Below the pieces are notes generated by a model, which made no database searches, was not told where the DNA came from, and saw only the letters and a program-made list of their open reading frames with translations. A program made the position numbers and the translations under genes. From positions 1-36,413 of IMG/VR virus record IMGVR_UViG_3300010327_000704: a DNA stretch of 36,413 nucleotides; one strand, written 5' to 3'. Position 1 is the first letter of the stretch; every line of letters starts with the position of its first letter. The DNA is from a virus. Below are positions 3,711 through 36,413 of the stretch, in pieces.

Positions 3711-6287
3711 ATGATGCCATTGCTCTTGAATGAAGCCCTCAATGACAAATTGAGGCGAAAACACGGCTTAAACATCGTTTTCACGAACAAGGAGAAGCGG
3801 CCGTTACTCAAGGGATGGAACGAGTTCATAGAAAAGCCCCAGACAGACCAAGACCTCAAGAAATCGTTCCGCAGCGGATCATCGGCGTACGGCTACGTCT
3901 GTGGATGGAATGATCTGATTTGCATCGATTTCGACAACCCACTACCCTATTTCTTGTGCCAAAAAGAATTTGGAGACCGTTTCGACACCTTCACAGTCGA
4001 AACCCCGAATAGGGGTTTCCATGTCTATTTTTTTTCATCAGAATCAAATCAGAAAAAGAATATCAACACGTATAAGGACAATCTGCACGTTGAGATCATC
4101 CTGCGGGGCAATTCGCTGTGCCACGGCCGCATAGAAACCCGACGTGGCCTCGAAGAATACATCATCAAGGTGGATAAGGACATCCGCCGTGATAACACGA
4201 TAATCATGGACGTTCTTTCGTTTCTCGAGGAGACGATAGCTAAGCTCGAGTTCTTGGAGTACGAATGTGTTAAGGCGGCTCTCCGGGGAAAACCAGAGCT
4301 CAGCCACGAAGCCCGGCTAATATTCGCCAACTTCCTCGTCCGAGAACTAAAACCATCAATCGCCAGATACTTTTTCAGAAATCAGAGCGACTACAACAAG
4401 AAAACGACAGTATATCAGCTGCGATCTACGCTCTCAAAAATAGAAAAGGGCGAACTGAATCCGCCGACATGCAAGACTATGCGCAGCGTATTCAATGTAG
4501 ACGCCTCGATCTGCGAGAATTGCATACGACACGAACAGGACAAGGCCATACCAGAGAAGAAAGAGAAGCTGAGGACGATCTCAGTCGACGATCTCCTTGA
4601 GAATGTTGGATTGGCCCGGCCGAAGATCCAGACAGGCCAACACTGGGACGAGGCCGAGAAGAAACTCTATTATAGCTGGTACGACCCAAAGAAAGACGCT
4701 TTCCTCGTTCTGGGAGAGGACGGGCTTGGGGTCGGGATACACGACGACGACATCAAAGATTGGAAGAAAATGCCAGAGAACGTCCACCGAATGGAAGGAG
4801 CCAAAATTAAACCCCCAAAACGCGTCGAAGATGTTGTTCTCGGCTGCCTTGTGAAATGGGCCCATGAAGGCTTCCCAGCCGGAAAAAAGCTCACGCTCAG
4901 CAACCTATACGACCGAATCTACCAAGCCCTCAAAAAATACATCTATTTTCGATACGAAACAGAATATTCGCTTGTTTCAGCATGGATAATAGGCACATAC
5001 ATGCGCCAGGCCTTCATATGGTACCCATACCTCGTCTTTTTTGGTCTGAGGAATGTTGGAAAGTCCACAGCGATCACGGTACTCTCTCGGCTCTGCTTCC
5101 AGGGTGCGGGGGACAGCACGGGCGACAGAAGTGAAGCAGTGATATTCAGAAAGGCGTCCGGACTCAAAGGGCTCATGACAGTCGACCATTTCGAAGAAAT
5201 AATCAACAATCCCGTGAAAAACATCACATACCATCAGTTTCTCGAAAACGCCTGGTATCGGGACAACACAGTCGAAAGAATGAACGACAACTTCGACGTA
5301 GACTCATTCACGGCCAGTGTGAGCGTAGCGGTCTCAACAAGAGAGGAGAATGACGTTCTCGGAGAAAAGGGGATCGTGGTGATCATGGAGGAGGCACCTC
5401 GAAACAGCTCATATGCCGACAACTACCGAAAAATTCTCTCTGACCCCGAATTCGATGAAATCACCCGGCTAGCCCACCTCGTAGCCCTCAAATACGCCAA
5501 GGACGTCCACAACACTTATATCAACCTCAGCCAAGGCGACGGTTGGAAAATACAAGGCAGAGACTGGAACAAGATATCCCCGCTTCTGTCCATTGTCGCG
5601 GTCATCGATCAGGAAAAAGGAGAAGATTCCAAACTATTCGAAGAACTCTACGAGTACGCCGAAGAATATTCGAGAAGGAGAAAGGACGAAACCAGTGATA
5701 TCGAGGACTTGGCGCTCCAGTACATCATCGAAGAAGGCTATGACAGATACACGCTCAAGGAACTGCAAGAACACATCAAGGAGGAAATCGACCCATACAT
5801 AACGCCCCAAAAGGTCGGGCAGATCATGAAAAAACTCCTCATCACAAAACGAAAGTCGAAAAGAGGTGGTGAGACAATCTACTACATAGATCGGAAGCTC
5901 GCGACCAAAAAAGCCCTCGAGAGGGGCATACCACTCGCAAGCGACCACATATACACCCACGAAACCCAAGAAACAGAAGAAACCACTAAAAAAACCGAAG
6001 ATGGGGCCACAAGGCCTGAGGACGGTGAAGGGACGGTGGAATTCACCGACATCGAAGAGAAAGCCCTTAGGATCGTCTACGCCGAGATGGACAACCCCAA
6101 CCAAGCATGCGGATACCAAACGCTGCTATCCGGGCTGGCAGCACATGACGTCATCTTGGACGAAGCCCAGCTCGCAATAGAGCGTCTCAAAGCCCGAGGT
6201 TACCTCCGGGAGGAGGTAATAGGTCATATTCACATCCCAGAAGAAAAAATAGCCAAACTAATCGACATGGGGGTGATCAAGATATGA
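3711..6287 (+). CDS. Replication protein: AEP primase-polymerase + PriL-like Fe-S domain + P-loop helicase-like domain
   Basis: AEP motifs LICIDFD and ETPNRGFHVYF. Four-Cys region ECV...PPTC...ICENC. Walker A GLRNVGKST and Walker B-like MTVDHFEE. Probable winged-helix segments at the C-terminus. Confidence 0.82.
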   Translation: MMPLLLNEALNDKLRRKHGLNIVFTNKEKRPLLKGWNEFIEKPQTDQDLKKSFRSGSSAYGYVCGWNDLICIDFDNPLPYFLCQKEFGDRFDTFTVETPNRGFHVYFFSSESNQKKNINTYKDNLHVEIILRGNSLCHGRIETRRGLEEYIIKVDKDIRRDNTIIMDVLSFLEETIAKLEFLEYECVKAALRGKPELSHEARLIFANFLVRELKPSIARYFFRNQSDYNKKTTVYQLRSTLSKIEKGELNPPTCKTMRSVFNVDASICENCIRHEQDKAIPEKKEKLRTISVDDLLENVGLARPKIQTGQHWDEAEKKLYYSWYDPKKDAFLVLGEDGLGVGIHDDDIKDWKKMPENVHRMEGAKIKPPKRVEDVVLGCLVKWAHEGFPAGKKLTLSNLYDRIYQALKKYIYFRYETEYSLVSAWIIGTYMRQAFIWYPYLVFFGLRNVGKSTAITVLSRLCFQGAGDSTGDRSEAVIFRKASGLKGLMTVDHFEEIINNPVKNITYHQFLENAWYRDNTVERMNDNFDVDSFTASVSVAVSTREENDVLGEKGIVVIMEEAPRNSSYADNYRKILSDPEFDEITRLAHLVALKYAKDVHNTYINLSQGDGWKIQGRDWNKISPLLSIVAVIDQEKGEDSKLFEELYEYAEEYSRRRKDETSDIEDLALQYIIEEGYDRYTLKELQEHIKEEIDPYITPQKVGQIMKKLLITKRKSKRGGETIYYIDRKLATKKALERGIPLASDHIYTHETQETEETTKKTEDGATRPEDGEGTVEFTDIEEKALRIVYAEMDNPNQACGYQTLLSGLAAHDVILDEAQLAIERLKARGYLREEVIGHIHIPEEKIAKLIDMGVIKI

Positions 6288-6751
6288 GTTCGCGCCGAAC
6301 CTACACACTCAGGCGTTGCAGCCGATGTGGGGAGAGCCGCAGCATGCGAGAACTCGAAAACGGCTCATGGGTCTGCTACCGTTGTCTCAGAGGCGATGAC
6401 ATGGTTCTATGCGAGCTATGCGGCGAATACAAACCATACCAAGACTATCCGAGGAAGGGCCGTTGGCGGTTACGCTATTGCCAGACGTGCAAGGACACAT
6501 CGTACGAGATCAGGAAGACGTGGGGCGTGGAACTCACCACACTCGCCAGAAAAAAGCTACTCCAAAAAGAAGTCAGATCAGACAATGGGAGAATTATATT
6601 GTCTCTCGATAAGGCGGTGCAGTTGGCGATGAAAGGCCACGTACACCCGAAACGATTAAAACCCGACGAGCAGCACCTTTTTCTGATAATATGCTCCGGG
6701 GACTGGCAAATCCTCGAAAGGAGCCCACAAGGTGGCCAAGATGAAAAATAA
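6284..6751 (+). CDS. Multi-CxxC zinc-finger protein
   Basis: CSRC, CYRC, CELC, CQTC; ATGA overlap with the primase stop. Confidence 0.75.
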   Translation: MSSRRTYTLRRCSRCGESRSMRELENGSWVCYRCLRGDDMVLCELCGEYKPYQDYPRKGRWRLRYCQTCKDTSYEIRKTWGVELTTLARKKLLQKEVRSDNGRIILSLDKAVQLAMKGHVHPKRLKPDEQHLFLIICSGDWQILERSPQGGQDEK

Positions 6752-6914
6752 CGGCACGATCAGCATAAAAGTCAACAAAACAGCCATGGAACAATACCTC
6801 GAGCAGATGGAGCTCGTGAGACTTTCATTAACCAGGAAACGAGAATACGAGGCGGCCATAATCCTAGATGACTTCCTCGAACTCCTAAAATGCAAAATGA
6901 AGAAAAAGAGCTGA
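6741..6914 (+). CDS. Small hypothetical protein (57-60 aa)
   Basis: Track start is 6732 (GTG); ATG 6741 has AAGGTGG upstream. Last gene of the rightward arm. Confidence 0.6.
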   Translation: MKNNGTISIKVNKTAMEQYLEQMELVRLSLTRKREYEAAIILDDFLELLKCKMKKKS

Positions 6915-7134
6915 TAAAATGTAAAAAAAAAGAAGAACATAGGAGGCCCTAAGTCCACCCCGCAAAGGTCAAGATAACGCCTGAAAGATCCAAAAAAAAA
7001 AAGTTTTATACTGATTCCCTTTTCTCTCTCTTTTTTTTCATGTGCAGAGCATGTAATGGAACGTGATACAATATTCACCGCCTATGATCCGATACGACCG
7101 CCTATAATGATAAGCCATGCCGTTATATGCCCCT
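6915..7134. terminator. Convergent terminator/intergenic region between the early and late arms
   Basis: A9 (6923-6931) and A11 (6992-7002) act as T-runs for the minus-strand operon; T8 (7031-7038) serves the plus strand. Confidence 0.6.
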
Positions 7135-7434
7135 TTAGGGAGCCAAAGCCGGCGGATCCCCATCACCCCACCTCTCATAACTCCTTTTGAAAATTCGCAG
7201 AATCAACGGCAAGTACATGTAGTCATCATCATGAATTTGAATCTGAAGATGCTCCTCATCCGACGAGAAGTGGACCTGAGCCCCAACCAGGATCGCTGCA
7301 AAGTTAAGGATATCACAAATCTCTTGATTTGTTCGGAACACCCACGGCTTGCTCCGTATGAACCATCGGAGCATTCTTTCGAAGTATTGGACTGTGGCTT
7401 CGCCTTCTAGGTCGATGATCATCGCCATCTCCAT
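7135..7434 (-). CDS. Hypothetical protein (99 aa), last gene of the late operon
   Basis: AGGAGG SD upstream of ATG 7434; same orientation as the late operon. Confidence 0.7.
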   Translation of the reverse strand: MEMAMIIDLEGEATVQYFERMLRWFIRSKPWVFRTNQEICDILNFAAILVGAQVHFSSDEEHLQIQIHDDDYMYLPLILRIFKRSYERWGDGDPPALAP

Positions 7435-7488
7435 ACACTCTATCCTCCTGATTATAGTCTGTTTTTTTGGAATTCTGCTAAGGGGAGG

Positions 7489-8370
7489 CTAATCTTCGAA
7501 GTCAATCTCTGAAAACAGTGGGATATGCACAATACTCCAGAAATCCGACGCAAGATTTAGATCGAGATACCTATAGCTGAGATAACCATACCCGCCGTCC
7601 CCCCAATCCTCACCCCAACTATTCCGGATCACCAAGGCTTCTTTCCGGTCGTCGTAGCCCACAGCGAGCACTGCATGGCCGCCCGCAAGCACGTCGTCAG
7701 CCCCGGGCGGCTCGATAAAACCATTGTCAGCCGCTTGCTCAATAGCCTTCCGATAGACGAGGAAACCGAAGAGGATTGGTTGCCCGGCGGCCAGATGCTT
7801 CTTCAAGTCACCAAGCACCTTTCCTTGCTTTCTATATTGTTCTTCGTAGTTGTACCATGAATCTATCGAGAATTCATCGGCCAATCCGTAAACGTAGACG
7901 TCATAATCTCTGTCGAAGCGGTTGGGGTTGTATTCTGTCCCGAATTTGGGATCTTCCTCTGGGGCTCCGAAACGGTGCAGAGCCCGCATAGTATCCTTTA
8001 TCGATGATCCAACATCACCCTGGGGTGTTCCCATGAGAATGCGGCTATGTTTGTATATGAATAGCCGTGATGGCGTTCGAGACCATGAGGATCCGGTGTT
8101 CTGCTCGTACCATCGCCGCTGGTAGTATTCGAGGGCTGCTGCGGCCGTCTGAGCCGTGCAAGAACCAATATGTCCCTGATCATACACCGGCGGAAAATGT
8201 TCTCTGAGATCTACACGATCCGGCAATGTAGATGTGTCCTCTGGGACTTCTGTGTCCGTAGCATCGAAAAGAAAGCATCTGACGCTTTCTAGGGCCGTCT
8301 CATGCTTCTTGTATTTGGAGGGGATCCATCCTCTCAGGGAATAGGTTCGTCCTGCGTGTCGAATTTCCAC
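7489..8370 (-). CDS. Papain-family (C1A) cysteine peptidase, candidate endolysin
   Basis: DQGHIGSCTA (oxyanion Gln + catalytic Cys), GGHAVLAVGY (His), IRNSWGEDWGDGGYGY (Asn); prokaryotic xylellain-like layout; no signal peptide visible. Confidence 0.93.
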   Translation of the reverse strand: MEIRHAGRTYSLRGWIPSKYKKHETALESVRCFLFDATDTEVPEDTSTLPDRVDLREHFPPVYDQGHIGSCTAQTAAAALEYYQRRWYEQNTGSSWSRTPSRLFIYKHSRILMGTPQGDVGSSIKDTMRALHRFGAPEEDPKFGTEYNPNRFDRDYDVYVYGLADEFSIDSWYNYEEQYRKQGKVLGDLKKHLAAGQPILFGFLVYRKAIEQAADNGFIEPPGADDVLAGGHAVLAVGYDDRKEALVIRNSWGEDWGDGGYGYLSYRYLDLNLASDFWSIVHIPLFSEIDFED

Positions 8371-8448
8371 TCTCAGACACCCCTTCCCTCGGACCCTTTT
8401 TTTTTGCTATAAGCTTCTAGTGTGAGCCGTTTCACCATCTGGCGTATC

Positions 8449-8805
8449 CTATTGGATATAGTGGTTGTGGCCTTTTTCTTTGCGTTTGTTCCGCGCTCCG
8501 GGAAAGCAATTGAGCAGAAGGCGGAGCTGGGCGGCGTATGGTCGCAGTATTCTCTCATTCTCGAATAGTTTGTCCCCGACGTAGAAAGACCACGCCTTCA
8601 AGACCTCCAAACAGAAATAAAACTCCTGTAATTCTCTCGGGAGATCATTGGCGATATATATGCAAGTGTCATGGGGATCCCAGTATGCATATCGCCGTTC
8701 CCAGCCTTTCACGCCCAGACTCTTCAGGGCTTCCCGGAGGCGTTCGCTGTCCTCCATCTTCACATCGTAGATTATCCCTGCGATGTTCACCCGATCGGGG
8801 ATCAT
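8449..8805 (-). CDS. Phage metallopeptidase-like protein with a degenerate HExxH motif
   Basis: IPDRVNIAGIIYDV...IYIANDLPRELQEFYFCLEVLKA follows the small phage zincin pattern, but LEVLK replaces HExxH. Confidence 0.5.
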   Translation of the reverse strand: MIPDRVNIAGIIYDVKMEDSERLREALKSLGVKGWERRYAYWDPHDTCIYIANDLPRELQEFYFCLEVLKAWSFYVGDKLFENERILRPYAAQLRLLLNCFPGARNKRKEKGHNHYIQ

Positions 8806-9191
8806 TCTCTTCGCCTCTTCGCTCCCCGGAGCATCTGAGCCAGCCTATCCTGGAGTTCGGCGGTAATATGCTCTGTTATCGTGTCCTCGAGATCCTTGAT
8901 GATCCTTTCGTTAGATCGGCGAAGAGCATTATTTATAATGTCGACTTCTTCGCGTTTGGCCCGTACTTTGTGTTTGTCGCCGAGATAATTGACCGTGAAG
9001 CCGAGCGCAACCGCCAGAACGCCCGAAATCAAGAACTCGAACCTCGTAGGGCTGGATGTCAGACCGTTCTGGACGAGGATCAGGCCCGCGGCGATCAGAG
9101 CACTCGATGTGCTCGTCTTGGCCAGATTCGTTTTCAGAACCGTTCGAGTGTAATGTGTGATTATAAGGCGTTTGGTTTTTTCATCAATCAT
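8802..9191 (-). CDS. Holin-like two-TM membrane protein
   Basis: Hydrophobic segments SALIAAGLILVQNGL and FLISGVLAVALGFTVNYLG, followed by a charged coiled-coil with a basic end; sits after the tail genes and before the peptidase. Confidence 0.6.
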   Translation of the reverse strand: MIDEKTKRLIITHYTRTVLKTNLAKTSTSSALIAAGLILVQNGLTSSPTRFEFLISGVLAVALGFTVNYLGDKHKVRAKREEVDIINNALRRSNERIIKDLEDTITEHITAELQDRLAQMLRGAKRRRE

Positions 9192-9235
9192 GCTATCTGG
9201 TCTCCATTGTCCGTTTTGTCGTCATTGGCGGCTGA

Positions 9236-16935: not shown

Positions 16936-19020
16936 CTAACAGGTTTTTATCACGGTCAGACCAGGACGGGATGCAGTCGTTCGGAAACCGCGATCGAAGC
17001 CGTATTCACGATAGGGGACGTCTACCCATTGGCCGTTTTGCATATACTGGACCGTACGGTGGCGTGGGGACTCGGCTGTCGTGTACTGGATGATCCGCGC
17101 CTTGAAGCCGGCTTGGCACAGTTTTTGGAAGAGATATTCGCTCATGGCCCAGCAGTCACCCCAACCATTCTTCACAAGGCACTGTGCGTCCGAACAGCCG
17201 AAGGCGTGGCGGTATTTCGATGCTTCGGTGAGTATGGAGGCGAGCGTGCCCTGATCACCGCCCCCAGCCTGGCCTTCGCCCCCACCAGAGGATTTGGTCT
17301 CCGGTTTCCATAGGGCTAGCTCGAGGCTTGTATCGAAGCCATCCGGGCCGAGCTTGTGCGAAATGCCCTTCAAGTAGAGTTCATCCTTGTATTCGTCTGT
17401 TTGGTTGTTGATGTGCACCCAACGGCCGGGGAAAAACTCCGGGTCTCCCAGAACCTCGCACGTGACAGCCTCTGAGGAATCCACGCGCTGTAACGTCCTC
17501 AGAATCTTTTTTCCTTTTTTTCGGGCTTCACACGGGCTCAGATCCGGCCAGTTCAACTCGAGACGTCCCATCTCGCCATACTTTTCCCAGTCCTTGTCCA
17601 GCACTTCAACGACCTCTCCGCCCTTGCATGTGATCTTGAGGGCCGCTACGATCGGCGCTTTCCCCTCAGTCATCTCAAAAGACTCCTCCAACATATTCCA
17701 ATCAGATAAGGCGAAGAGGATCTTGGAATCGTCCTCAAAGGGCTCTTTGATCTCGTGAACGTAGCATGTGTCGCCCTTCACAAAGACGTGCGTATCTTCC
17801 TCAAATTCCTCCAAGGCCTTCAATATAATGTCCCAATACGTCATTTCCTGCGTGGAAGTGGTGGTTTCACCTCCGCTGCTCTCAGAGCCGGGCTCGCCGG
17901 TGACGGTTTCTCCACACGTCGTCTTCAGGACTCTTCTGTGAGATCCGTCGTGTATTGTCCCGCAGCCGCAGTAATCTCTGTCGCAGCTGCAGCAGAAGAA
18001 CGTCCCCTCCGGGAAAATGTTAGATCCGCCCTGGGCAGTGCTCCCCGAGCCAGGATGCCCCGCACACTTGTCCACATTACAATCTGGGGGACAACGGTTA
18101 TATTGGATGTCAGTGGAACCACATTCGCATGGCCCGGTGACAGTGCAGACCGTATACTTCCCAGATCCCGATTTCGGGAGTGGACAGTCGCTTCTCCCGC
18201 ACGAGTTTTGGCACGGCCCTGAGGCATACCCACCTCCTGTAGTTCCCCCGGCTGTTGTTTCCTCTTTGAACGAGACCTTGGCCTCGAGGATCTCTTTTCG
18301 CAGTTTGATATTGGGTTTGAGCCCAGCCTTTTTTATGACGTCTTCTAGGACTCCTTTGACTGTTTTATCGACGTAGGATTCTGTGGTGGCCTTTTGTTCG
18401 AGTAGGACGCCCGTGTCAGCGAATTGGACTGTTATGTCGCGTTTTCCTTTTTTGACCTCGGCGATGAAGGCGGAGAAGGCGTCTCGGAGGATCCTCGTGG
18501 TTTCTTTCCCAGTTTCAGGGTCTGGGACTGGGGAATCATATTCGTAGCCAATCCGAACGTTGAGTTCGTCCCCTTGCATCAGCCGTTGAAAGCGCTGTTT
18601 TGTGTACGGAACCACGAGGGATCCTGTTCCGGTCGATTCGGTGATGCTTTTGTTGAAATCGACTGATTGAATCGCTGTGAGCTTCCATTGTTCTTTTATT
18701 TTGCACTTATTGAGATATTTCATGAGAGCGACGCTGGAAATGTTGTTGAGAAGATATTGGGCGATCGTGGGCTTAGTTTGCTCTTCCGAAGCCTCCTCAG
18801 TGGCGGTTTCTTCGGTGGTAGTCTGAGTGGTTTGTTCCTCTTTTGATTTCTTTTTGTCATCCTTTTTCTGTTGAGATTCTTTCTGTTGTTTTTGTTCGGT
18901 GATATCGAGCTTGAATGGCTCTTTCACGCACCACTCACGCTTGATCAGCTCGATTTCGATGACTGGCCTCGCCCCAGCCCGTAGTGGGATGTTTCGAGGA
19001 GTGATATACGTCACAGCCAC
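16936..19020 (-). CDS. Baseplate hub (gpD/gp27/XkdQ-like) with a Cys-rich insertion and a C-terminal transglutaminase/papain-like domain
   Basis: Hub motifs ELNVRIGY, DKTVKGVLEDVIKKAGL, EVLGDPEFFPGRWVHI...YLKGISHKLGPDGFDTSLEL. 15 Cys in aa 270-369. C-terminal GDCWAMSEYL...ARIIQY...RHRTVQ...WVDVPY. Confidence 0.8.
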   Translation of the reverse strand: MAVTYITPRNIPLRAGARPVIEIELIKREWCVKEPFKLDITEQKQQKESQQKKDDKKKSKEEQTTQTTTEETATEEASEEQTKPTIAQYLLNNISSVALMKYLNKCKIKEQWKLTAIQSVDFNKSITESTGTGSLVVPYTKQRFQRLMQGDELNVRIGYEYDSPVPDPETGKETTRILRDAFSAFIAEVKKGKRDITVQFADTGVLLEQKATTESYVDKTVKGVLEDVIKKAGLKPNIKLRKEILEAKVSFKEETTAGGTTGGGYASGPCQNSCGRSDCPLPKSGSGKYTVCTVTGPCECGSTDIQYNRCPPDCNVDKCAGHPGSGSTAQGGSNIFPEGTFFCCSCDRDYCGCGTIHDGSHRRVLKTTCGETVTGEPGSESSGGETTTSTQEMTYWDIILKALEEFEEDTHVFVKGDTCYVHEIKEPFEDDSKILFALSDWNMLEESFEMTEGKAPIVAALKITCKGGEVVEVLDKDWEKYGEMGRLELNWPDLSPCEARKKGKKILRTLQRVDSSEAVTCEVLGDPEFFPGRWVHINNQTDEYKDELYLKGISHKLGPDGFDTSLELALWKPETKSSGGGEGQAGGGDQGTLASILTEASKYRHAFGCSDAQCLVKNGWGDCWAMSEYLFQKLCQAGFKARIIQYTTAESPRHRTVQYMQNGQWVDVPYREYGFDRGFRTTASRPGLTVIKTC

Positions 19021-29409: not shown

Positions 29410-30030
29410 TTATCTTTTGATCTTTCTTCCGAATTTGTCTCGGCCCAGTCGGCTATAGAAGTCGTCTGGTTTGGGCTTTTTGGAGGATTCCTTCAGTTTC
29501 TTGGTTGTTTCGCCGCCAAACTTCTCCTCAACCTTTTCGAGGCGTTTGGCGAATTCTTCGATCTGTTCTCTGATTGTTTCGGTGGCTTCTTTTGTGACCT
29601 TGTCTGAGACGATCTCAGCGAGCTTCTTGAATGTGTCCGCGTCTTCGTGTCCCTTTTTGACTTTCTGCGTGTCTTCTTCCTTCTCTTCTTCGTCCTTTGG
29701 CTTCTCGTTGGCTTTCTCGGGCTCTGGGACAGGATATCTCTCCTCCTGAGCCCTGAGATATTCTATGATTTGGCGGGCTGCATCGCGAACCTCGGAGGGG
29801 AGGTTTTCATCGTCGACGATCGCTTGCAGCTGCTCAACGACTTTGGCGATGGCATTCTCCTTCTTCTCTGTCTCAGAAGGTGGTGCGTAGGAGTATCCCA
29901 TTACAGCGGCTTCAACGGCCGCTATGGCCTTGTCGATGGCTTGGCGGGCTGCGACGAGCAGATCGAGAACGTCCTCGGATCCGCCAGTCTCTTCGGCCTC
30001 CTCCTTCTCTTCTTTGATGTTTTTTGTCAT
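29410..30030 (-). CDS. Probable nested scaffold protein (206 aa) from an internal in-frame start
   Basis: GAGGTGA lies 5 nt before in-frame ATG 30030 (MTKNIKEE...), right after the protease domain. Confidence 0.55.
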   Translation of the reverse strand: MTKNIKEEKEEAEETGGSEDVLDLLVAARQAIDKAIAAVEAAVMGYSYAPPSETEKKENAIAKVVEQLQAIVDDENLPSEVRDAARQIIEYLRAQEERYPVPEPEKANEKPKDEEEKEEDTQKVKKGHEDADTFKKLAEIVSDKVTKEATETIREQIEEFAKRLEKVEEKFGGETTKKLKESSKKPKPDDFYSRLGRDKFGRKIKR

Positions 30031-33000
30031 GGGGTTCACCTCTTCGTCCATTTTGAGAATTACCCACCGTGCGTCTGGCACGGCAGGATTGGAAACGAGA
30101 CTGACCTCGAAAACCTCAAGATCTCTGAGTTCTTGGGGTTCTTGGTCTTGGGGCTCGTCATCGGCCGTCTTCATCCGATCAGGAGCTTGTGGGCAACTTT
30201 TGCATATTCCTCCGATTGAAACGCCTCTGATCTCTCCTTTTTTGATCATACGCCACAGTTCCGGGTTATGTATCTTGAAGCCGATCATCCACGTCCCCGG
30301 CGGCAACTCATCACCATCCGCGAGCTCGTAGGGCTGTCTGAGAATGTAGGATTCTACGATTGTGACGTCGCTGCGGGGAAGTGGTGCTTCGTGCATGAAA
30401 TGGACGCTCTGGTAGTTTGCCATGAAATTATGGGCTGTACGCTCGATTTCCTCGGCAGAGATAACGTCGCCGTGCTTATCCACGCGGTTAGGTACGAGGG
30501 CGGGGGCCAGGGCGAAACGCTCTTCATCATCGATTTTCACGATTCTAGCGTAGATCTCGGCTCGCTTCTCCTTGCCCTGCTCTTCGTCTTTTGGTTTCCA
30601 TTCGGTTACGTCGATTAGCTTGGGTTTCTCGCCGGGTTTGGCCCATACAAGCCATTTCTGTCCTTTCTGCTTCAATTCCTTGACAACGTCTTCTAGCCTG
30701 TTCTTTTCGGCGTAGGGCGTCTGATCTTCGGGCTTTTCAAGGAGCCAGATCCTACGGCCTGCCACTGGAGCGTATTCGATCAGATAACGCCCCGTCAGTT
30801 TTTCGCCGTGTAGGAAGATTTCGAAGAAATGCTCTCTCCAGACGCCGATTTCGTAGGTTCCAGAGTCTATCAGGAAGAATTTGCTCCATTTATGGGTTGT
30901 GGAGCCAACATCCCGCGGTGGGACGACTAATGGCTCGTCTTTTCCAACCTCGAGCCATTCCTTGGGTTGTGGGAGTTTGAACGCGCCTTGGAGTTTTCTA
31001 TTTCCGAGGTTGTAGAGTAGGCTGCCTCCCGCCTCTCTATTCTCCTTTGTATCGCCGAGAAAAGCCGTGAAACCCCATAAGTGGTCGTCCACCGAGAATC
31101 TGAGATCGGCATGCAAGCTATGATCAGTTTCAAGGAGCTCCTCATTCGATTTCTTGGTATCCTCTTCCGAGAGGCCTCTCCAGTGATGCTGAACGACGAA
31201 CTGGCCTTTCCCGGAGGGTGGGAACTCCTTGTACCAGTTTTCAGCCCAATACTCTGCCGCGGCCTCGCTTCTCGTGTCAATCTCTTCGCCGTCGTCTTCT
31301 TTGATCAGCTCCTCGATTCCCAATGGGCCGTGGAGAGCGTAGATCATCTTGAGCTCTTGGCTCATGTCTTCGAGGTCGCCTGGGGTTTGTTCGTAGAGAC
31401 TGGTGTATAGGGCTTTGTAGATTTTCATTTCCTTGGTTGTGGGCTCGTATTCTTTGAGGAAGTTGTATTTGGTCTTGTTTTTTGTCCAGTCGGAGTGGAG
31501 GAGGGTCTGTATGAGGTCATCGTCTACTATGGGGTCTTGTTTCTTGGTCTCGGCTGGTATTCTGGTGTCGTTGAGTATGCCAGCCCTTCTCGCGAGGTCG
31601 ACAGCCTGTCCAGCAGTGTATGGTTCTTTTCTTTCTTTGTCGATGTCTATTGGGACGGCGGCTGTCCAGCTCAGCTCATCCCCGTCCTTAGTTTGGCGGA
31701 TCATGATCTCCTGAGGCTGTACTGTGATGATGTCGCCGGGTTTGGCCTTGAACGGCGCGTTCATCGTATATTTCATATTCACGTACGTTTTGCCTCGGAA
31801 TTCGACGACATTCGCGAATGGGAGTTCACCTGGTAGGAGGCCGCAGTCGAAGGAGTACGTTCCGTTCTTGTTTTTCCGAGCCTCCAGTACGATGGCTTTC
31901 AGTTCGGCTACTTTCTTGATCTTGGCGGTGGAATCGTTTGGGCCCTCGTGGTAGGGTGCTGTTTCATCCTTGAGGACGATACCCTCGCTGAGCTGGTAAT
32001 TGCCAAGCTCTTGGAAGGCCTTAGCAAGATCTTCGAGGCTTCGGATTTTCATTTGGTGTGAGATGTCGAAATGTTTGCTGTTTTTGAGGTGTTGGTCGTG
32101 GAATCGTTCGAGGATTTGTCTGCGTTCGCGTAGCGGCTTCTTTCTGAGATCGCCGCCGGCTCTGTCCCAGTACAGGATGTCGAAGGCTGTGAAGACTGGA
32201 TAGACGTCCTTGGGGAGCTCTGGGTTGTCGGCTGTGAGGGACATGACGTTCAGGCGGGGTAGTCGTTCGTCGCCTCTGTATAGGCCTACGTCGCCGTCGA
32301 GGATGAAATCGGCGCCGATCTGTTGAATGGCCTTGATGAGTTCGGGTATCTGATCTTTCCGTTCTTTCTGAGCGTCCTCGAAGAAGATGCTCACCTTGTC
32401 GCCTTTCTTTTGGATGATGGCTCTGAATCCGTTGAGCTTGTTCTCTGCCACAGCCTCAGGATGCTTTTCAAGCCATGTTATGAGCTCTTCGGGTTTGAAG
32501 GCCTCGGTCCCGGCGTAGTAGAATCCCATTCTGGGTTTGGATGGTGTGAAGTGCGTGATCGGTCCCCATTCCTTTCTTAGGATTGGGATTTTTTCTTTGG
32601 CTTTGGATGCGAGTTCGGATAGGTTATCGAGGGCCTTCCAGAAAGGGTTCACGATCTTCACGTCCCTTTTGTCACTCCTGACGAGCGCGAGGTCGTATAT
32701 GGGCACGTAATTGGTAAAGGCGCCCTGAGGATTGTTTATCAAGTGTATGGGCTTTTCTTTGTCTGGTGTGAGAGTGAGGCGGATTGGAACATAGACGCTT
32801 TCAAATTTAATCTGATAAGAGTCGCCTTTTAGGTCGGCCCTCACCAGAATGTCGATGTCGTCGTAATTTGGCCTTCGAACGGCCGACCCAACCAGATCCA
32901 CGAATTCTGGGACGAGTATGATCTTTTCGGGGAGTTCGTCGAGGTCAACCGGCAAATTCGAGGCGTCTTTGAGCTTTTTATCGAGTTCATCACGTATATG

Positions 33001-33192
33001 ATGTTGGAGGCTTCTTCGGGCCATCTCCGCGACTATCAGATGGTGAGCGTTGACCACATCCTCCAAATTGATGTTTTCGCCGCCTTGCTCCCTGATCTTG
33101 GGATACAGTTGGTGGCAGCGGCGGTGGAGATTGAGAAGCTCATCATCAGGGGCTCTTTTCAGGTTTTGGGGGTTTACCTCACGTATTTTCAT
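29410..33192 (-). CDS. Multidomain head protein: helical N-domain + Pol-beta-type NTase + ATP-dependent ligase + LigD-type 3'-phosphoesterase + XkdF/S78-like prohead protease + scaffold
   Basis: Numbered on the track's 1316-aa ORF. NTase: LVGS...DDIDIL (aa 156-172). Ligase: ENKLNGFR, FILDGD, FTAFDIL, PLRERRQIL, EGIVLKD, KIKK (aa 305-483). Phosphoesterase: FVVQHH...LHADLR...IDSGTYE...FLHGEKLTGRY (aa 721-859). Protease: LVPNRVDKHGDVI...HFMH...GTWMIGFK...IKKGEIRGVSIGG...EVSLVSNPA (aa 950-1095). Charged helical tail. Likely start is ATG 33192 with a GAGGGG SD. Confidence 0.85.
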   Translation of the reverse strand: MKIREVNPQNLKRAPDDELLNLHRRCHQLYPKIREQGGENINLEDVVNAHHLIVAEMARRSLQHHIRDELDKKLKDASNLPVDLDELPEKIILVPEFVDLVGSAVRRPNYDDIDILVRADLKGDSYQIKFESVYVPIRLTLTPDKEKPIHLINNPQGAFTNYVPIYDLALVRSDKRDVKIVNPFWKALDNLSELASKAKEKIPILRKEWGPITHFTPSKPRMGFYYAGTEAFKPEELITWLEKHPEAVAENKLNGFRAIIQKKGDKVSIFFEDAQKERKDQIPELIKAIQQIGADFILDGDVGLYRGDERLPRLNVMSLTADNPELPKDVYPVFTAFDILYWDRAGGDLRKKPLRERRQILERFHDQHLKNSKHFDISHQMKIRSLEDLAKAFQELGNYQLSEGIVLKDETAPYHEGPNDSTAKIKKVAELKAIVLEARKNKNGTYSFDCGLLPGELPFANVVEFRGKTYVNMKYTMNAPFKAKPGDIITVQPQEIMIRQTKDGDELSWTAAVPIDIDKERKEPYTAGQAVDLARRAGILNDTRIPAETKKQDPIVDDDLIQTLLHSDWTKNKTKYNFLKEYEPTTKEMKIYKALYTSLYEQTPGDLEDMSQELKMIYALHGPLGIEELIKEDDGEEIDTRSEAAAEYWAENWYKEFPPSGKGQFVVQHHWRGLSEEDTKKSNEELLETDHSLHADLRFSVDDHLWGFTAFLGDTKENREAGGSLLYNLGNRKLQGAFKLPQPKEWLEVGKDEPLVVPPRDVGSTTHKWSKFFLIDSGTYEIGVWREHFFEIFLHGEKLTGRYLIEYAPVAGRRIWLLEKPEDQTPYAEKNRLEDVVKELKQKGQKWLVWAKPGEKPKLIDVTEWKPKDEEQGKEKRAEIYARIVKIDDEERFALAPALVPNRVDKHGDVISAEEIERTAHNFMANYQSVHFMHEAPLPRSDVTIVESYILRQPYELADGDELPPGTWMIGFKIHNPELWRMIKKGEIRGVSIGGICKSCPQAPDRMKTADDEPQDQEPQELRDLEVFEVSLVSNPAVPDARWVILKMDEEVNPMTKNIKEEKEEAEETGGSEDVLDLLVAARQAIDKAIAAVEAAVMGYSYAPPSETEKKENAIAKVVEQLQAIVDDENLPSEVRDAARQIIEYLRAQEERYPVPEPEKANEKPKDEEEKEEDTQKVKKGHEDADTFKKLAEIVSDKVTKEATETIREQIEEFAKRLEKVEEKFGGETTKKLKESSKKPKPDDFYSRLGRDKFGRKIKR

Positions 33193-33218
33193 ATTATCCC
33201 CTCGGGGGAGGGTTGGGG

Positions 33219-34154
33219 TCATATTGGTGTGATTTGGAGCCAATCTGATCCTGGTGGGGCCACAGGAACCCAAGTGCATCGGCAATTCGGGTGCTGCGGG
33301 ATCAGATCCTTCACTTTTGGGTCTGCGACCCTTAGAACGGCCCCATCCCATTTTCGGCATCGTCTACAGACTTTTGAGTCCCGGGCAGTGAGATACATGA
33401 CTTCCTGGACCCCAGCCGCCGTGCACGCCTCCAGTTTGGCTAATTTCGAAGCCGCGGATAATTCTGTTCGGAGAACTCGGGAGAAGAGATACCGGGTGCT
33501 CTTGTACGCTGAGTCGACTGGATTGAAGAGTTTCATGATGTTGGCAGCTATTTCGTCTGCTGTTGCACGTGTGGCGAGACCGTCAGCGATAAAAGAAGCA
33601 GCCAGACCACCCAAGCGTTTTGGGAGCGTTTCGAGGGCTGGGGATGCCATTTCAGCTATTCGGACGTTTAGGGCGGCTAATTCGGGCTCTGGAAGCCTAA
33701 GGCCCGATGGTGTCAGATTCACGTATCTCAGAATCTTCTCGAGTGTTTTCTCGTAGGTGGCGGCGTACTGGGTTTGCATTCTTCGAAGGACGAGTTCTCT
33801 GGGCTCTCTGAGGTGGTATGCGAGTAGTGCGATGATCGCACTGATCAGGAGGATGTCGTCGGTGTCGAGGCCTTGTTCTTCGAGTTCTCGACGGATTTCC
33901 TCGTCGATGGCGTACTCTTGTTTGGCCACAGCCTTCTTGTCCCTCCATTCATGGATTAGACGACTGAGGTCGTTCTGTGCTCTGGCTATTGCTTTGTCGA
34001 AGGCTTGTAGGAGTCTGTCAGTCTCTTGGATGATCTCTGAGCGCGTGGCATGGTATTCTACAGTGGTGTGTTCGATTGGTTGGGATTTGAGGCCGTCCCT
34101 GAGAAGAGTGATTTTTCGGATGACGTCGTCGAGCTCGTGTATGATTCCCTTCAT
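33219..34154 (-). CDS. MuF/SPP1 gp7-like minor head protein
   Basis: RVLRTE..., YLTARDSKVCRRCRKWDG, IPQHPNCRCTWVP; follows the portal. Confidence 0.92.
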   Translation of the reverse strand: MKGIIHELDDVIRKITLLRDGLKSQPIEHTTVEYHATRSEIIQETDRLLQAFDKAIARAQNDLSRLIHEWRDKKAVAKQEYAIDEEIRRELEEQGLDTDDILLISAIIALLAYHLREPRELVLRRMQTQYAATYEKTLEKILRYVNLTPSGLRLPEPELAALNVRIAEMASPALETLPKRLGGLAASFIADGLATRATADEIAANIMKLFNPVDSAYKSTRYLFSRVLRTELSAASKLAKLEACTAAGVQEVMYLTARDSKVCRRCRKWDGAVLRVADPKVKDLIPQHPNCRCTWVPVAPPGSDWLQITPI

Positions 34155-35659: not shown

Positions 35660-36411
35660 AGCGTGATTGTTCCGCCGCCCCTGCGCCGGGGGATCTCAAC
35701 GAGCTCGTAGAGGAACCCAGTGCTGTTTTTGGCTTCGCATCGCACAGCAACGGGCACAACTTTGCCCGTATCGTTTTTCCATTTGAGTCTGAACTTCTTC
35801 CACTCATTCACGGATTCTCCGGGGAGTATGGCTTCGGCAAGCTTACCGTCGTCCCCCGCGAAGTAGGGATCTTGTGTGGCGTTGAATAGGTATGCGCGGG
35901 GCGCATATTCCATTGTAGTGCTTTTGCGAAGCCATACGTCAACCATAACCTTTTTCCCGGGCTCTATGGTGCCAAGATGGATGGTGCGGCGCACAGGAGA
36001 CATTGAATTGGTTAAAGTGTACTGGTAGGCCCTGGTTTTGCCTGGTGGGGTCACGTTGCTCTGGGATTGGACAGTGCCGCCGCGATACCAAGCCATGTAC
36101 GCTCCGGGGACTTGGTTGTGGTTGAAGGACTCCAGGGCACCCTCCAGTGTAGCCCCCCCATAATCGATGCTGATGGTGGGTGCAAGGCAATCATAGAGCC
36201 TATGATGATAATGCAGCCTATTAACTGGCGTGTATCCGCCGAAGTCCATATTATAACATGTTATACGATGCTGGAAGGAGCCATATGCTCCACTTTGAAG
36301 GTTACGGGCCTTGCAGCCCTTGTGCTGACTGAAACCACAACCCAAATCAGGGTATCTATATACGACTGCACGGGCGTTCTGGAACCAGCACCCATCAAAC
36401 AATGACCCCGC
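35656..36411 (-). CDS. C-terminal part of a beta-helix/CBM-like protein, 5'-truncated by the window
   Basis: Frame is open to the window edge (AGSLFDGCWFQN...). Short beta repeats are followed by a jelly-roll-like segment (VMVDVWLRK...EWKKFRLKW). Overlaps the portal start. Confidence 0.5.
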   Translation of the reverse strand, partial: AGSLFDGCWFQNARAVVYRYPDLGCGFSQHKGCKARNLQSGAYGSFQHRITCYNMDFGGYTPVNRLHYHHRLYDCLAPTISIDYGGATLEGALESFNHNQVPGAYMAWYRGGTVQSQSNVTPPGKTRAYQYTLTNSMSPVRRTIHLGTIEPGKKVMVDVWLRKSTTMEYAPRAYLFNATQDPYFAGDDGKLAEAILPGESVNEWKKFRLKWKNDTGKVVPVAVRCEAKNSTGFLYELVEIPRRRGGGTITL

Positions 36412-36413
36412 AG

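Follow-up and report, generated by a model that had tools for sequence, protein, structure and literature searches.

Only two types of enzyme are known to open the pseudomurein wall of methanogens: the Pei enzymes PeiP and PeiW, with a catalytic domain of peptidase family C71, and PeiR, with a C39-like domain. In both, the catalytic domain is joined to pseudomurein-binding repeats (PMBR). The activity of Pei has been demonstrated, and the bond that it cuts is an epsilon-isopeptide bond (PMC4592898). PeiR, from the provirus phi-mru of Methanobrevibacter ruminantium, combines a Peptidase_C39-like domain with PMBR (PMC6189367, PMC11375127), and with it the catalytic family of a methanogen-virus lysin has already been swapped within clan CA. 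A review describes as unclear how the leaderless Pei crosses the archaeal membrane and states that no archaeal-virus holin has been identified (PMC10791045). Here we describe a cassette of three genes, encoding a small membrane protein of 129 residues, a soluble protein of 118 residues and a papain-family (C1A) peptidase of 293 residues, in the IMG/VR record IMGVR_UViG_3300010327_000704, the whole of which, 36,413 bases, was analysed and is called the window below. An earlier annotation of the locus (the original prediction) had proposed a lysis cassette in which the papain stands in for Pei, and its statement that the characterised lysins belong to other families is borne out by the domain compositions given above. 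We suggest that the papain is a candidate lysin and probably represents a third type that has not been described from methanogen viruses before.

A papain-family gene at the Pei position

In psiM2, PeiP (four PMBR repeats and a C71 domain) is encoded by the last late gene, after which comes the integrase; in Drs3, gp35 (PMBR and a transglutaminase/C71 domain) ends the late block; and in MSTV1 and PhiF3 a Pei gene closes the tail module or comes close to doing so. The papain gene of the window occupies the Pei position of these four viruses. Its late block is on the minus strand and runs from the right end through a truncated large-terminase gene (terL) and the portal, protease fusion, capsid, sheath/tube, tape measure and baseplate (PF04865) genes to a tail-fibre gene, with which the structural genes end and downstream of which the cassette begins. 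A six-frame profile search of the whole record with PF09373 (PMBR) and PF12386 (C71) at E <= 1 gave no match in the 36-kb window, nor in a syntenic 31-kb relative (G001). The positive controls were matched, PeiP at 3e-98 and Drs3 gp35 at 2e-6 by PF12386, with four PMBR found in PeiP and three in gp35. Because of the distal place of its gene in the late block and this null search, we regard the papain as standing at the Pei position in a virus without a visible Pei.

Like PeiP and PeiW, the viral papain is a leaderless clan CA thiol enzyme of about 300 residues encoded in the distal part of the late block, and in one papain lineage (L081) an integrase is likewise its neighbour, a tyrosine integrase gene (PF00589, E 4e-44) being found at most 1.2 kb downstream. 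The two differ in that PeiP and PeiW have a transglutaminase-like C71 fold and N-terminal PMBR repeats, whereas the viral papain has a C1A fold, a pro-segment and no repeats. PeiR, with a C39-type domain and PMBR repeats, is also unlike a papain that has no PMBR, and the list of the 50 best structural matches to the papain model does not contain it.

Enzymes of the C1A type have been seen in tailed viruses before. A survey of the papain family reported that xylellain-type genes were acquired by tailed viruses and proposed no function for them (PMC10380794). In the BFVD, phage proteins labelled 'uncultured Caudovirales' have a C1 domain joined to peptidoglycan-binding or muramidase parts, and the protein CDS0095 of Alicyclobacillus phage MMB025, annotated as an endolysin, consists of Peptidase_C1, Big_1, an Rv2525c glycosidase-like domain and PG_binding_1; this last protein matches the papain at E 8e-10 with 25% identity. 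The phage C1 endolysins (annotated as such) are multidomain and murein-directed and have anchors of the PG_binding_1 type, whereas the viral papain is single-domain and belongs to an archaeal virus. In the literature we found no paper describing a C1A lysin in an archaeal virus. Of the proposal that this is a new class of archaeal endolysin, then, the second half is strengthened by the Pei position and by the lack of a Pei gene in the available DNA, but the words 'new class' are softened by the earlier cases in tailed viruses.

The order tail fibre, 129-residue protein, 118-residue protein and papain is kept in five lineages from IMG/VR and JGI metagenomes, at 50-65% amino acid identity, and the tail-fibre protein is 58% identical to an 841-residue homologue that precedes the cassette in lineages L001, L080 and L081. 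In addition, a near-identical DNA variant from run X2 has three indels, all of them in the spacer 8371-8448 and none elsewhere in the cassette. Because the order is conserved in five lineages and the indels of the variant are confined to the spacer, the cassette genes are more than chance open reading frames (ORFs). A bona fide Pei gene elsewhere in the viral DNA, with the papain only variably present, was looked for; none was found in the 36 kb or in G001, and the papain is present in all five lineages. Scans of IMG/VR with the papain, the 118- and 129-residue proteins and the baseplate-J protein returned one related record each, and no relative with a different lysin at the papain position.

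Extra genes occur in some lineages, where the full order is fibre, 129-residue protein, phosphoesterase, 118-residue protein, second paralogue of the two-transmembrane (2-TM) protein, papain. The phosphoesterase is a 235-residue calcineurin-like protein (PF00149) encoded after the 129-residue gene in three lineages (L001 8646-9353), and in two of these three an 83-residue second 2-TM paralogue overlaps the papain start (L001 9744-9995). Variants of the cassette with the phosphoesterase, with or without the paralogue, were seen in L001, L079, L080, L081 and L082.

The enzyme itself is an intact papain, as had been claimed. Its gene (7489-8370, minus strand) has a GTG start behind a G-rich stretch resembling a Shine-Dalgarno (SD) sequence. 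The protein matches PF00112 (Peptidase_C1) with E 1.4e-13 and 51.9 bits (cut-off 20.7), and Q65, C71, H232, N250, S251 and W252, which include the Gln/Cys-His-Asn catalytic set, are invariant across 34 aligned homologues. A match to PF13529 (C39_2) reaches 22.1 bits, less than the cut-off of 24, and covers sequence that PF00112, from the same clan, matches more strongly. The absence of a signal peptide and of pseudomurein-binding repeats was also confirmed, given that there is no hydrophobic leader (maximum KD19 0.94) and no PF09373 match. The AlphaFold2 (AF2) model (pLDDT 91.6) has the two-lobe papain fold, with Z of 21-32 to xylellain, cathepsins and papain. The nearest solved relative is xylellain from Xylella fastidiosa (3OIS; E 3.4e-37 by sequence, Z 31.9 and rmsd 2.0 A over 248 residues by structure). 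As in xylellain-type enzymes, we found a single-domain, leaderless protein of 293 residues with a short GW..P segment and no long I29 propeptide. It shares with xylellain the Gln/Cys/His/Asn set and an N-terminal segment, that of xylellain aligning with residues 1-47 of the viral peptidase. Xylellain is, however, a bacterial chromosomal enzyme encoded outside any virus late operon. The viral clade is also set apart from it by its own insert after EYYQRRWY, by GWIPSxIxKxDP in place of GWxxDxPDxRD, by an acidic C-terminal tail, FSEIDFE[DE], that is largely conserved in the clade, and by a long separate branch.

The N-terminus of the model deserves separate mention. Alignment to xylellain begins at residue 1 (3OIS chain residue 28), and the next-best fold matches are zymogens, namely procathepsins B, K and H, pro-Der p 1 and propapain, all aligned from model residue 3. 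Mature C1A enzymes, in contrast, align only from model residues 24-49. Because the N-terminus superposes on zymogens in this way, we take residues 1-47 of the model to be a short built-in pro-segment, and from the alignment ranges we infer that it is placed in the active-site cleft. Within it, G14, W15 and P17 are invariant in the viral and cellular homologues. The N-terminal segment of xylellain reportedly blocks the active site of that enzyme.

The peptidase family is large, with more than 6,000 matches, and the viral clade within it is small. Among 5.8 billion proteins the viral papain clade makes up seven clusters, the 118-residue protein five and the 129-residue protein seven; several longest contigs of the same size recur among these clusters, and it is from this recurrence alone that co-occurrence was deduced there. 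In a quick tree, to be read with the usual long-branch caveat, the viral clade is monophyletic with a stem of 1.46 changes per site and falls outside the cellular Methanobacteriales clade. A stem of this length would fit a function changed from the cellular one. Leaderless chromosomal homologues of about 40% identity are found in at least 27 of 328 Methanobacteriales genomes, and no papain match above 43% identity was found among the 328. Ten chromosomal loci were examined. In many genomes of the Methanobacterium type (L066-L074) the gene is a stable part of the chromosome. An inositol-1-phosphate synthase gene adjoins the homologue in 6 of the 10, molybdopterin-oxidoreductase and nitrogenase-like genes flank it in several of these six, and most of the ten share cellular synteny with one another; no other gene in common with the window and no proviral context were found at any of them.

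Layout, partner genes and expression of the cassette

The original prediction had placed three genes at the end of the late operon, and all three are there, on the minus strand (Table 1). A small correction is a possible 99-residue ORF downstream, which starts directly after the papain stop. It was found only in the near-identical contigs L077 and L078, with no homologue in other lineages and no family match. Because this ORF, with its strong AGGAGG, comes after the papain gene, the latter may be the second-last gene of the strand rather than the last. The ATG of the 118-residue gene overlaps the TGA of the 129-residue gene (ATGA), and this stop/start overlap suggests that the two genes are translationally coupled.

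Table 1. Features of the cassette and its borders in the window.
Feature	Coordinates	Strand	Basis or remark
Tail-fibre gene, 830 residues	9236..11728	-	PF03906 Phage_T7_tail and DUF2460 matches
Small membrane protein of 129 residues, holin candidate	8802..9191	-	Hydropathy, conservation
Soluble protein of 118 residues, minimal zincin-like fold (predicted)	8449..8805	-	AF2 model, structure matches
Non-coding spacer, 78 nt, with A9 run and G-rich SD-like stretch	8371..8448		Sequence
Peptidase residues 1-47, predicted short N-terminal pro-segment (beta-hairpin 2-11, helix 27-38), motif G14-W15-x-P17	8230..8370	-	Alignment
Peptidase residues 48-293, C1A catalytic domain	7489..8229	-	PF00112, 3OIS match, model
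Possible gene of 99 residues, perhaps not real	7135..7434	-	AGGAGG 8 nt before ATG

The 129-residue protein has an N-terminus of about 22 residues followed by two hydrophobic segments, at about 23-47 (the weaker, KD17 1.39) and 47-71 (KD17 2.04), and ends with a helical tail of 57 residues that contains 15 K/R and 11 D/E. It thus has the small size, the one or more transmembrane segments and the charged hydrophilic C-terminus by which holins are recognised, and these features, together with the stop/start overlap, make it holin-like. A set of 1.84 billion proteins yields only 22 representatives of the family at E <= 1e-3, and its conserved motifs are KTSTSS-LIAAGLI and VNYxGDxHKVxxKxEE. In all five lineages its gene is one gene away from the papain, itself a candidate lysin. 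Bacteriophage holin-endolysin cassettes such as lambda S/R and PBSX xhlA-xhlB-xlyA are built in a comparable way, with a small membrane protein with a charged tail encoded by a leaderless enzyme at the end of the late genes, and the shorter second 2-TM paralogue of some lineages resembles what is seen in two-component holins or holin/antiholin pairs. In contrast to those cassettes, there is here no sequence relation to a holin family, a further gene is placed between the two, and the host is archaeal, its lipids being ether lipids and its wall pseudomurein.

The gene in between encodes a protein of 118 residues that has no Pfam match even at E 10. Its AF2 model (pLDDT about 88 over residues 1-80) shows the succession beta-beta-alpha-beta-beta-long helix. 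The top VIA matches of this model are nearly all zincins, with Z up to 6.1, and they include a regulator from M. tuberculosis, YbeY, PprI/IrrE (8sln, Z 5.9), jannalysin, SprT and CapP (Z 4.0). In the ESM Atlas the protein scores 0.95 to viral clusters in which 10-15% of the members carry PF06114. The histidines of the HEXXH motif are missing in all seven family members; the helix reads C65-L-E67-V-[LF]-[KR] instead, and C65 and E67 are invariant in the family. On the basis of the model we call this protein a pseudo-zincin, with a predicted minimal fold of the M78/ImmA-IrrE type. Perhaps it regulates the protease or the membrane protein, or serves one of them as a chaperone, which is a guess.

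Assemblies from one metatranscriptome study of digesters contain the cassette, in contigs covering 7280-9193 (run X3, depth 17) and 7645-9193 (run X7, depth 11). The contigs of the tail genes have similar depths (18-30 in X3, 8-13 in X7). Over 4003-7337, the gap between the PrimPol and papain genes, contigs in the RNA runs have depths of 1.5-7, against a flat depth of about 20 in the DNA run X2. All of these depths are averages over whole contigs; no ranking of genes was based on them, and the uncovered stretches in run X4 are uninformative. The cassette depths fit late co-expression and argue against pure carry-over of DNA.

A proposed egress role and its alternatives

On balance, we lean towards an egress cassette of the holin-endolysin type, in which a latent xylellain-type C1A peptidase would take the place of Pei. 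The three genes would be made late, together with the tail genes. The leaderless peptidase would accumulate in the cytoplasm in a latent form, its N-terminal segment of about 47 residues occupying the active-site cleft as in xylellain and the cathepsin zymogens, while the two-helix 129-residue protein would gather in the membrane and, like a holin, open it at some point. On arrival at the wall the peptidase would lose or displace its plug and could then cleave the cross-links of pseudomurein, which are all-L peptides, and perhaps also surface proteins bound to the wall. The anoxic, reducing habitat would keep its thiol active. A more specific version of this, in which the papain is a self-inhibited C1A zymogen lysin without repeats forming a third class, the 2-TM family is the first archaeal-virus holin and the pseudo-zincin is a regulatory third component, we regard as possible but rather doubtful.

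Several observations weigh against an egress role, and some of these concern the holin candidate. The 129-residue protein matches no PHROG or Pfam holin family, the best matches being DUF202 (E 0.023) and phrog_3045, 'membrane protein' (E 0.013). Its distant relatives, in ten low-GC viral contigs (L086-L095), are not next to Pei or papain genes. They are found a few kb upstream of the portal gene, a homologous portal being present in the fetched flank of 8 of the 10 Methanobacteriales-type contigs, and in the contig that was read in detail (L089, 5823-6390) the homologue is directly before terS and is preceded by another small 2-TM ORF. In G331, the one near-complete record that was checked, the relative is about 28 kb from a PMBR-bearing Pei-like gene. 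Because the distant members sit before terS and far from the Pei-like gene, the family, as judged from these contigs, belongs to the late blocks of methanogen-type viruses and is not generally linked to the lysin. The original prediction had proposed a check of synteny with holins in other methanogen viruses; there the relatives are before terS and not beside Pei, a placement that would be compatible with a holin role as well as with another one. A search of psiM2, Drs3, PhiF3 and MSTV1 with tblastn and the family hidden Markov model found no homologue; in psiM2 the gene immediately upstream of terS, ORF7, also has a transmembrane region in its annotation.

Other points concern the enzyme and its setting. 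The papain has no wall-binding domain, whereas every characterised Pei has PMBR repeats, and C1A peptidases are general endopeptidases that normally cut alpha-peptide bonds, whereas Pei cuts an epsilon-isopeptide bond. The cellular homologues are leaderless and, in most of the loci examined, placed among metabolic genes, as would be expected of a family that acts inside the cell. Both the window and G001 stop within terL, and a Pei gene could therefore be present further upstream. The 118-residue gene is unexplained within a lysis cassette, and the RNA evidence consists of assembled contigs from one study, which give no level, strand or transcript ends. Finally, the baseplate hub may carry a second wall-active thiol enzyme of the virus.

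The hub is a protein of 694 residues whose C-terminus (16939-17337, minus strand) follows a Gly-rich linker and contains GDCWAMS...RHRTVQY...WVDV, a Cys-His-Asp pattern like that of the transglutaminase core. Its match to Transglut_core is weak (E 0.16), and it aligns weakly in register with the catalytic Cys of the Drs3 Pei; BLASTP against PeiP and the Drs3 Pei gave nothing significant. If real, this transglutaminase-like end is more likely to serve entry.

Many of these points would also be expected if the papain were an accessory cytoplasmic protease, for host takeover, anti-defence or the processing of viral proteins, with the true lysin a Pei encoded in that part of the provirus which the record does not cover. 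Morons are common at the end of a late block, and the entry of variable extra genes (the phosphoesterase and a 155-residue membrane protein) into this region in other lineages is what is seen at moron hot spots; the mostly housekeeping contexts of the leaderless cellular homologues, the lack of a wall-binding repeat and the cut inside terL agree with such a role as well. The papain, however, is not variable but has the same two partners in all five lineages, it has no PADLOC match, and its long stem and clade-specific motifs suggest that its function has departed from that of the cellular homologues. Moreover, in every isolate examined Pei is at the distal end of the tail module and not before the terminase genes. 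We therefore consider an accessory protease unlikely, although it has to be taken seriously. Less likely again is an egress enzyme aimed at protein, which would strip surface proteins or destroy the receptor while the wall is broken by the hub end or by a host autolysin. This would suit the general endopeptidase character of C1A enzymes and the many PMBR-anchored surface proteins encoded by the nearest host genome, and the weak register of the GDCW...H...D pattern of the hub with the Drs3 Pei would supply the wall enzyme. PeiR, too, has a low, unexplained activity on strains without pseudomurein, which its authors ascribe to non-specific proteolysis (PMC6189367). On the other hand, the hub match is weak, virion-borne wall enzymes normally serve entry, and the 36 kb contain no other lysin candidate.

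We also considered a defence or exclusion module carried by the provirus, in which a membrane effector is controlled by a protease and a pseudo-protease sensor and acts on superinfecting viruses. Defence systems include M78-like parts as well as proteases paired with membrane proteins; one of the fold matches of the 118-residue protein noted above, CapP, is a protease associated with CBASS, and that the provirus invests in conflict genes is shown by a Csx16 anti-CRISPR candidate at another locus. The chances of such a module nevertheless seem slim to us, given that the PADLOC and NCBIfam libraries returned nothing for any cassette gene, that the genes are on the late strand, translationally coupled and directly behind the tail fibre, that their depths in the RNA libraries are like those of the tail genes, and that in other viruses the late block begins with the gene of a distant relative of this membrane protein. 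The cassette is immediately 3' of the fibre gene in every lineage, and genes downstream of fibre genes often encode fibre chaperones, from which it could be argued that the protease serves in the maturation of the tail fibre or of some other virion part, with the 118-residue protein as a fibre assembly factor. But the membrane-protein gene is placed between the fibre gene and the other two, the virus already has a prohead protease (PF14550), and the fibre-processing proteases that we know of are intramolecular S74 domains, not separate C1A enzymes. Fibre maturation is to our mind the least probable of these explanations, and a very improbable one.

If an egress role for the papain is correct, methanogen viruses swap the catalytic families of their lysins as freely as bacteriophages do. 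Both known types of wall-opening enzyme serve in the laboratory for methanogen genetics and are candidates for use against methanogens in ruminants (PMC6189367, PMC8963448), a toolbox to which an unrelated third one, with a single domain and probably thermostable, would add. Because a conserved two-helix protein is coupled into the cassette and a shuttle-vector system exists for M. thermautotrophicus (PMC8609365), the question of how leaderless enzymes such as Pei cross the membrane becomes directly testable. Should the enzyme prove not to be lytic, the cassette would still be a conserved, unexplained three-gene module of methanogen viruses.

Host, provirus and further observations

In the window, a provirus adjoins the nrdD gene of a Methanobacteriaceae archaeon. 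Of NrdD, the C-terminal 507 residues are encoded by bases 1-1526; they are 93% identical to the NrdD of the metagenome-assembled genome (MAG) Methanobacteriaceae archaeon 41_258 and 77% identical to that of a Methanothermobacter MAG. The flank 1-1581 has 88% nucleotide identity to 41_258, and the match stops at 1581. In the DNA runs X2 and X4, contigs follow the host nrdD to 1582 and continue into unlike sequence, which is an empty-site allele. Because these contigs leave nrdD at 1582, provirus-free host chromosomes co-exist with lysogens in the digesters of X2 and X4. The genome of 41_258 has 15 PMBR matches and 14 control genomes have none, and on this basis we consider the host to be a pseudomurein-walled, Methanothermobacter-like methanogen; the pseudomurein-walled host of Methanobacteriales type that had been predicted is thus supported by both the nrdD flank and the PMBR count. 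The portal protein is nearest to those of Drs3, psiM100 and psiM2 (34-37% identity).

Two cassette-bearing MAG contigs at NCBI (6.4 and 6.9 kb) are labelled 'Synergistaceae'. Since the junction with Methanobacteriaceae DNA is in the window itself, we set this label aside and assume that the two contigs were probably misbinned.

The window (36402-36413) and G001, its only IMG/VR relative (L097, at about 19953), end within terL at nearly the same point, which would be explained by a variable or repeated region at which assembly breaks off. On the minus strand, 29410-33360 encodes a protein of 1316 residues in which an ATP-dependent DNA ligase domain is joined to an XkdF-type prohead protease. 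Contig L083 (Ga0129303_100253) contains an inverted duplication, with the cassette present twice, head to head, around an AbrB/MazE-like gene, and this is probably an assembly artefact. At 9193-9198 the metatranscriptome contigs of X3 and X7 break and continue, on both sides, into AT-rich sequence unlike the window. It seems that a variant with extra sequence inserted between the genes of the fibre and of the 129-residue protein co-exists with this one.

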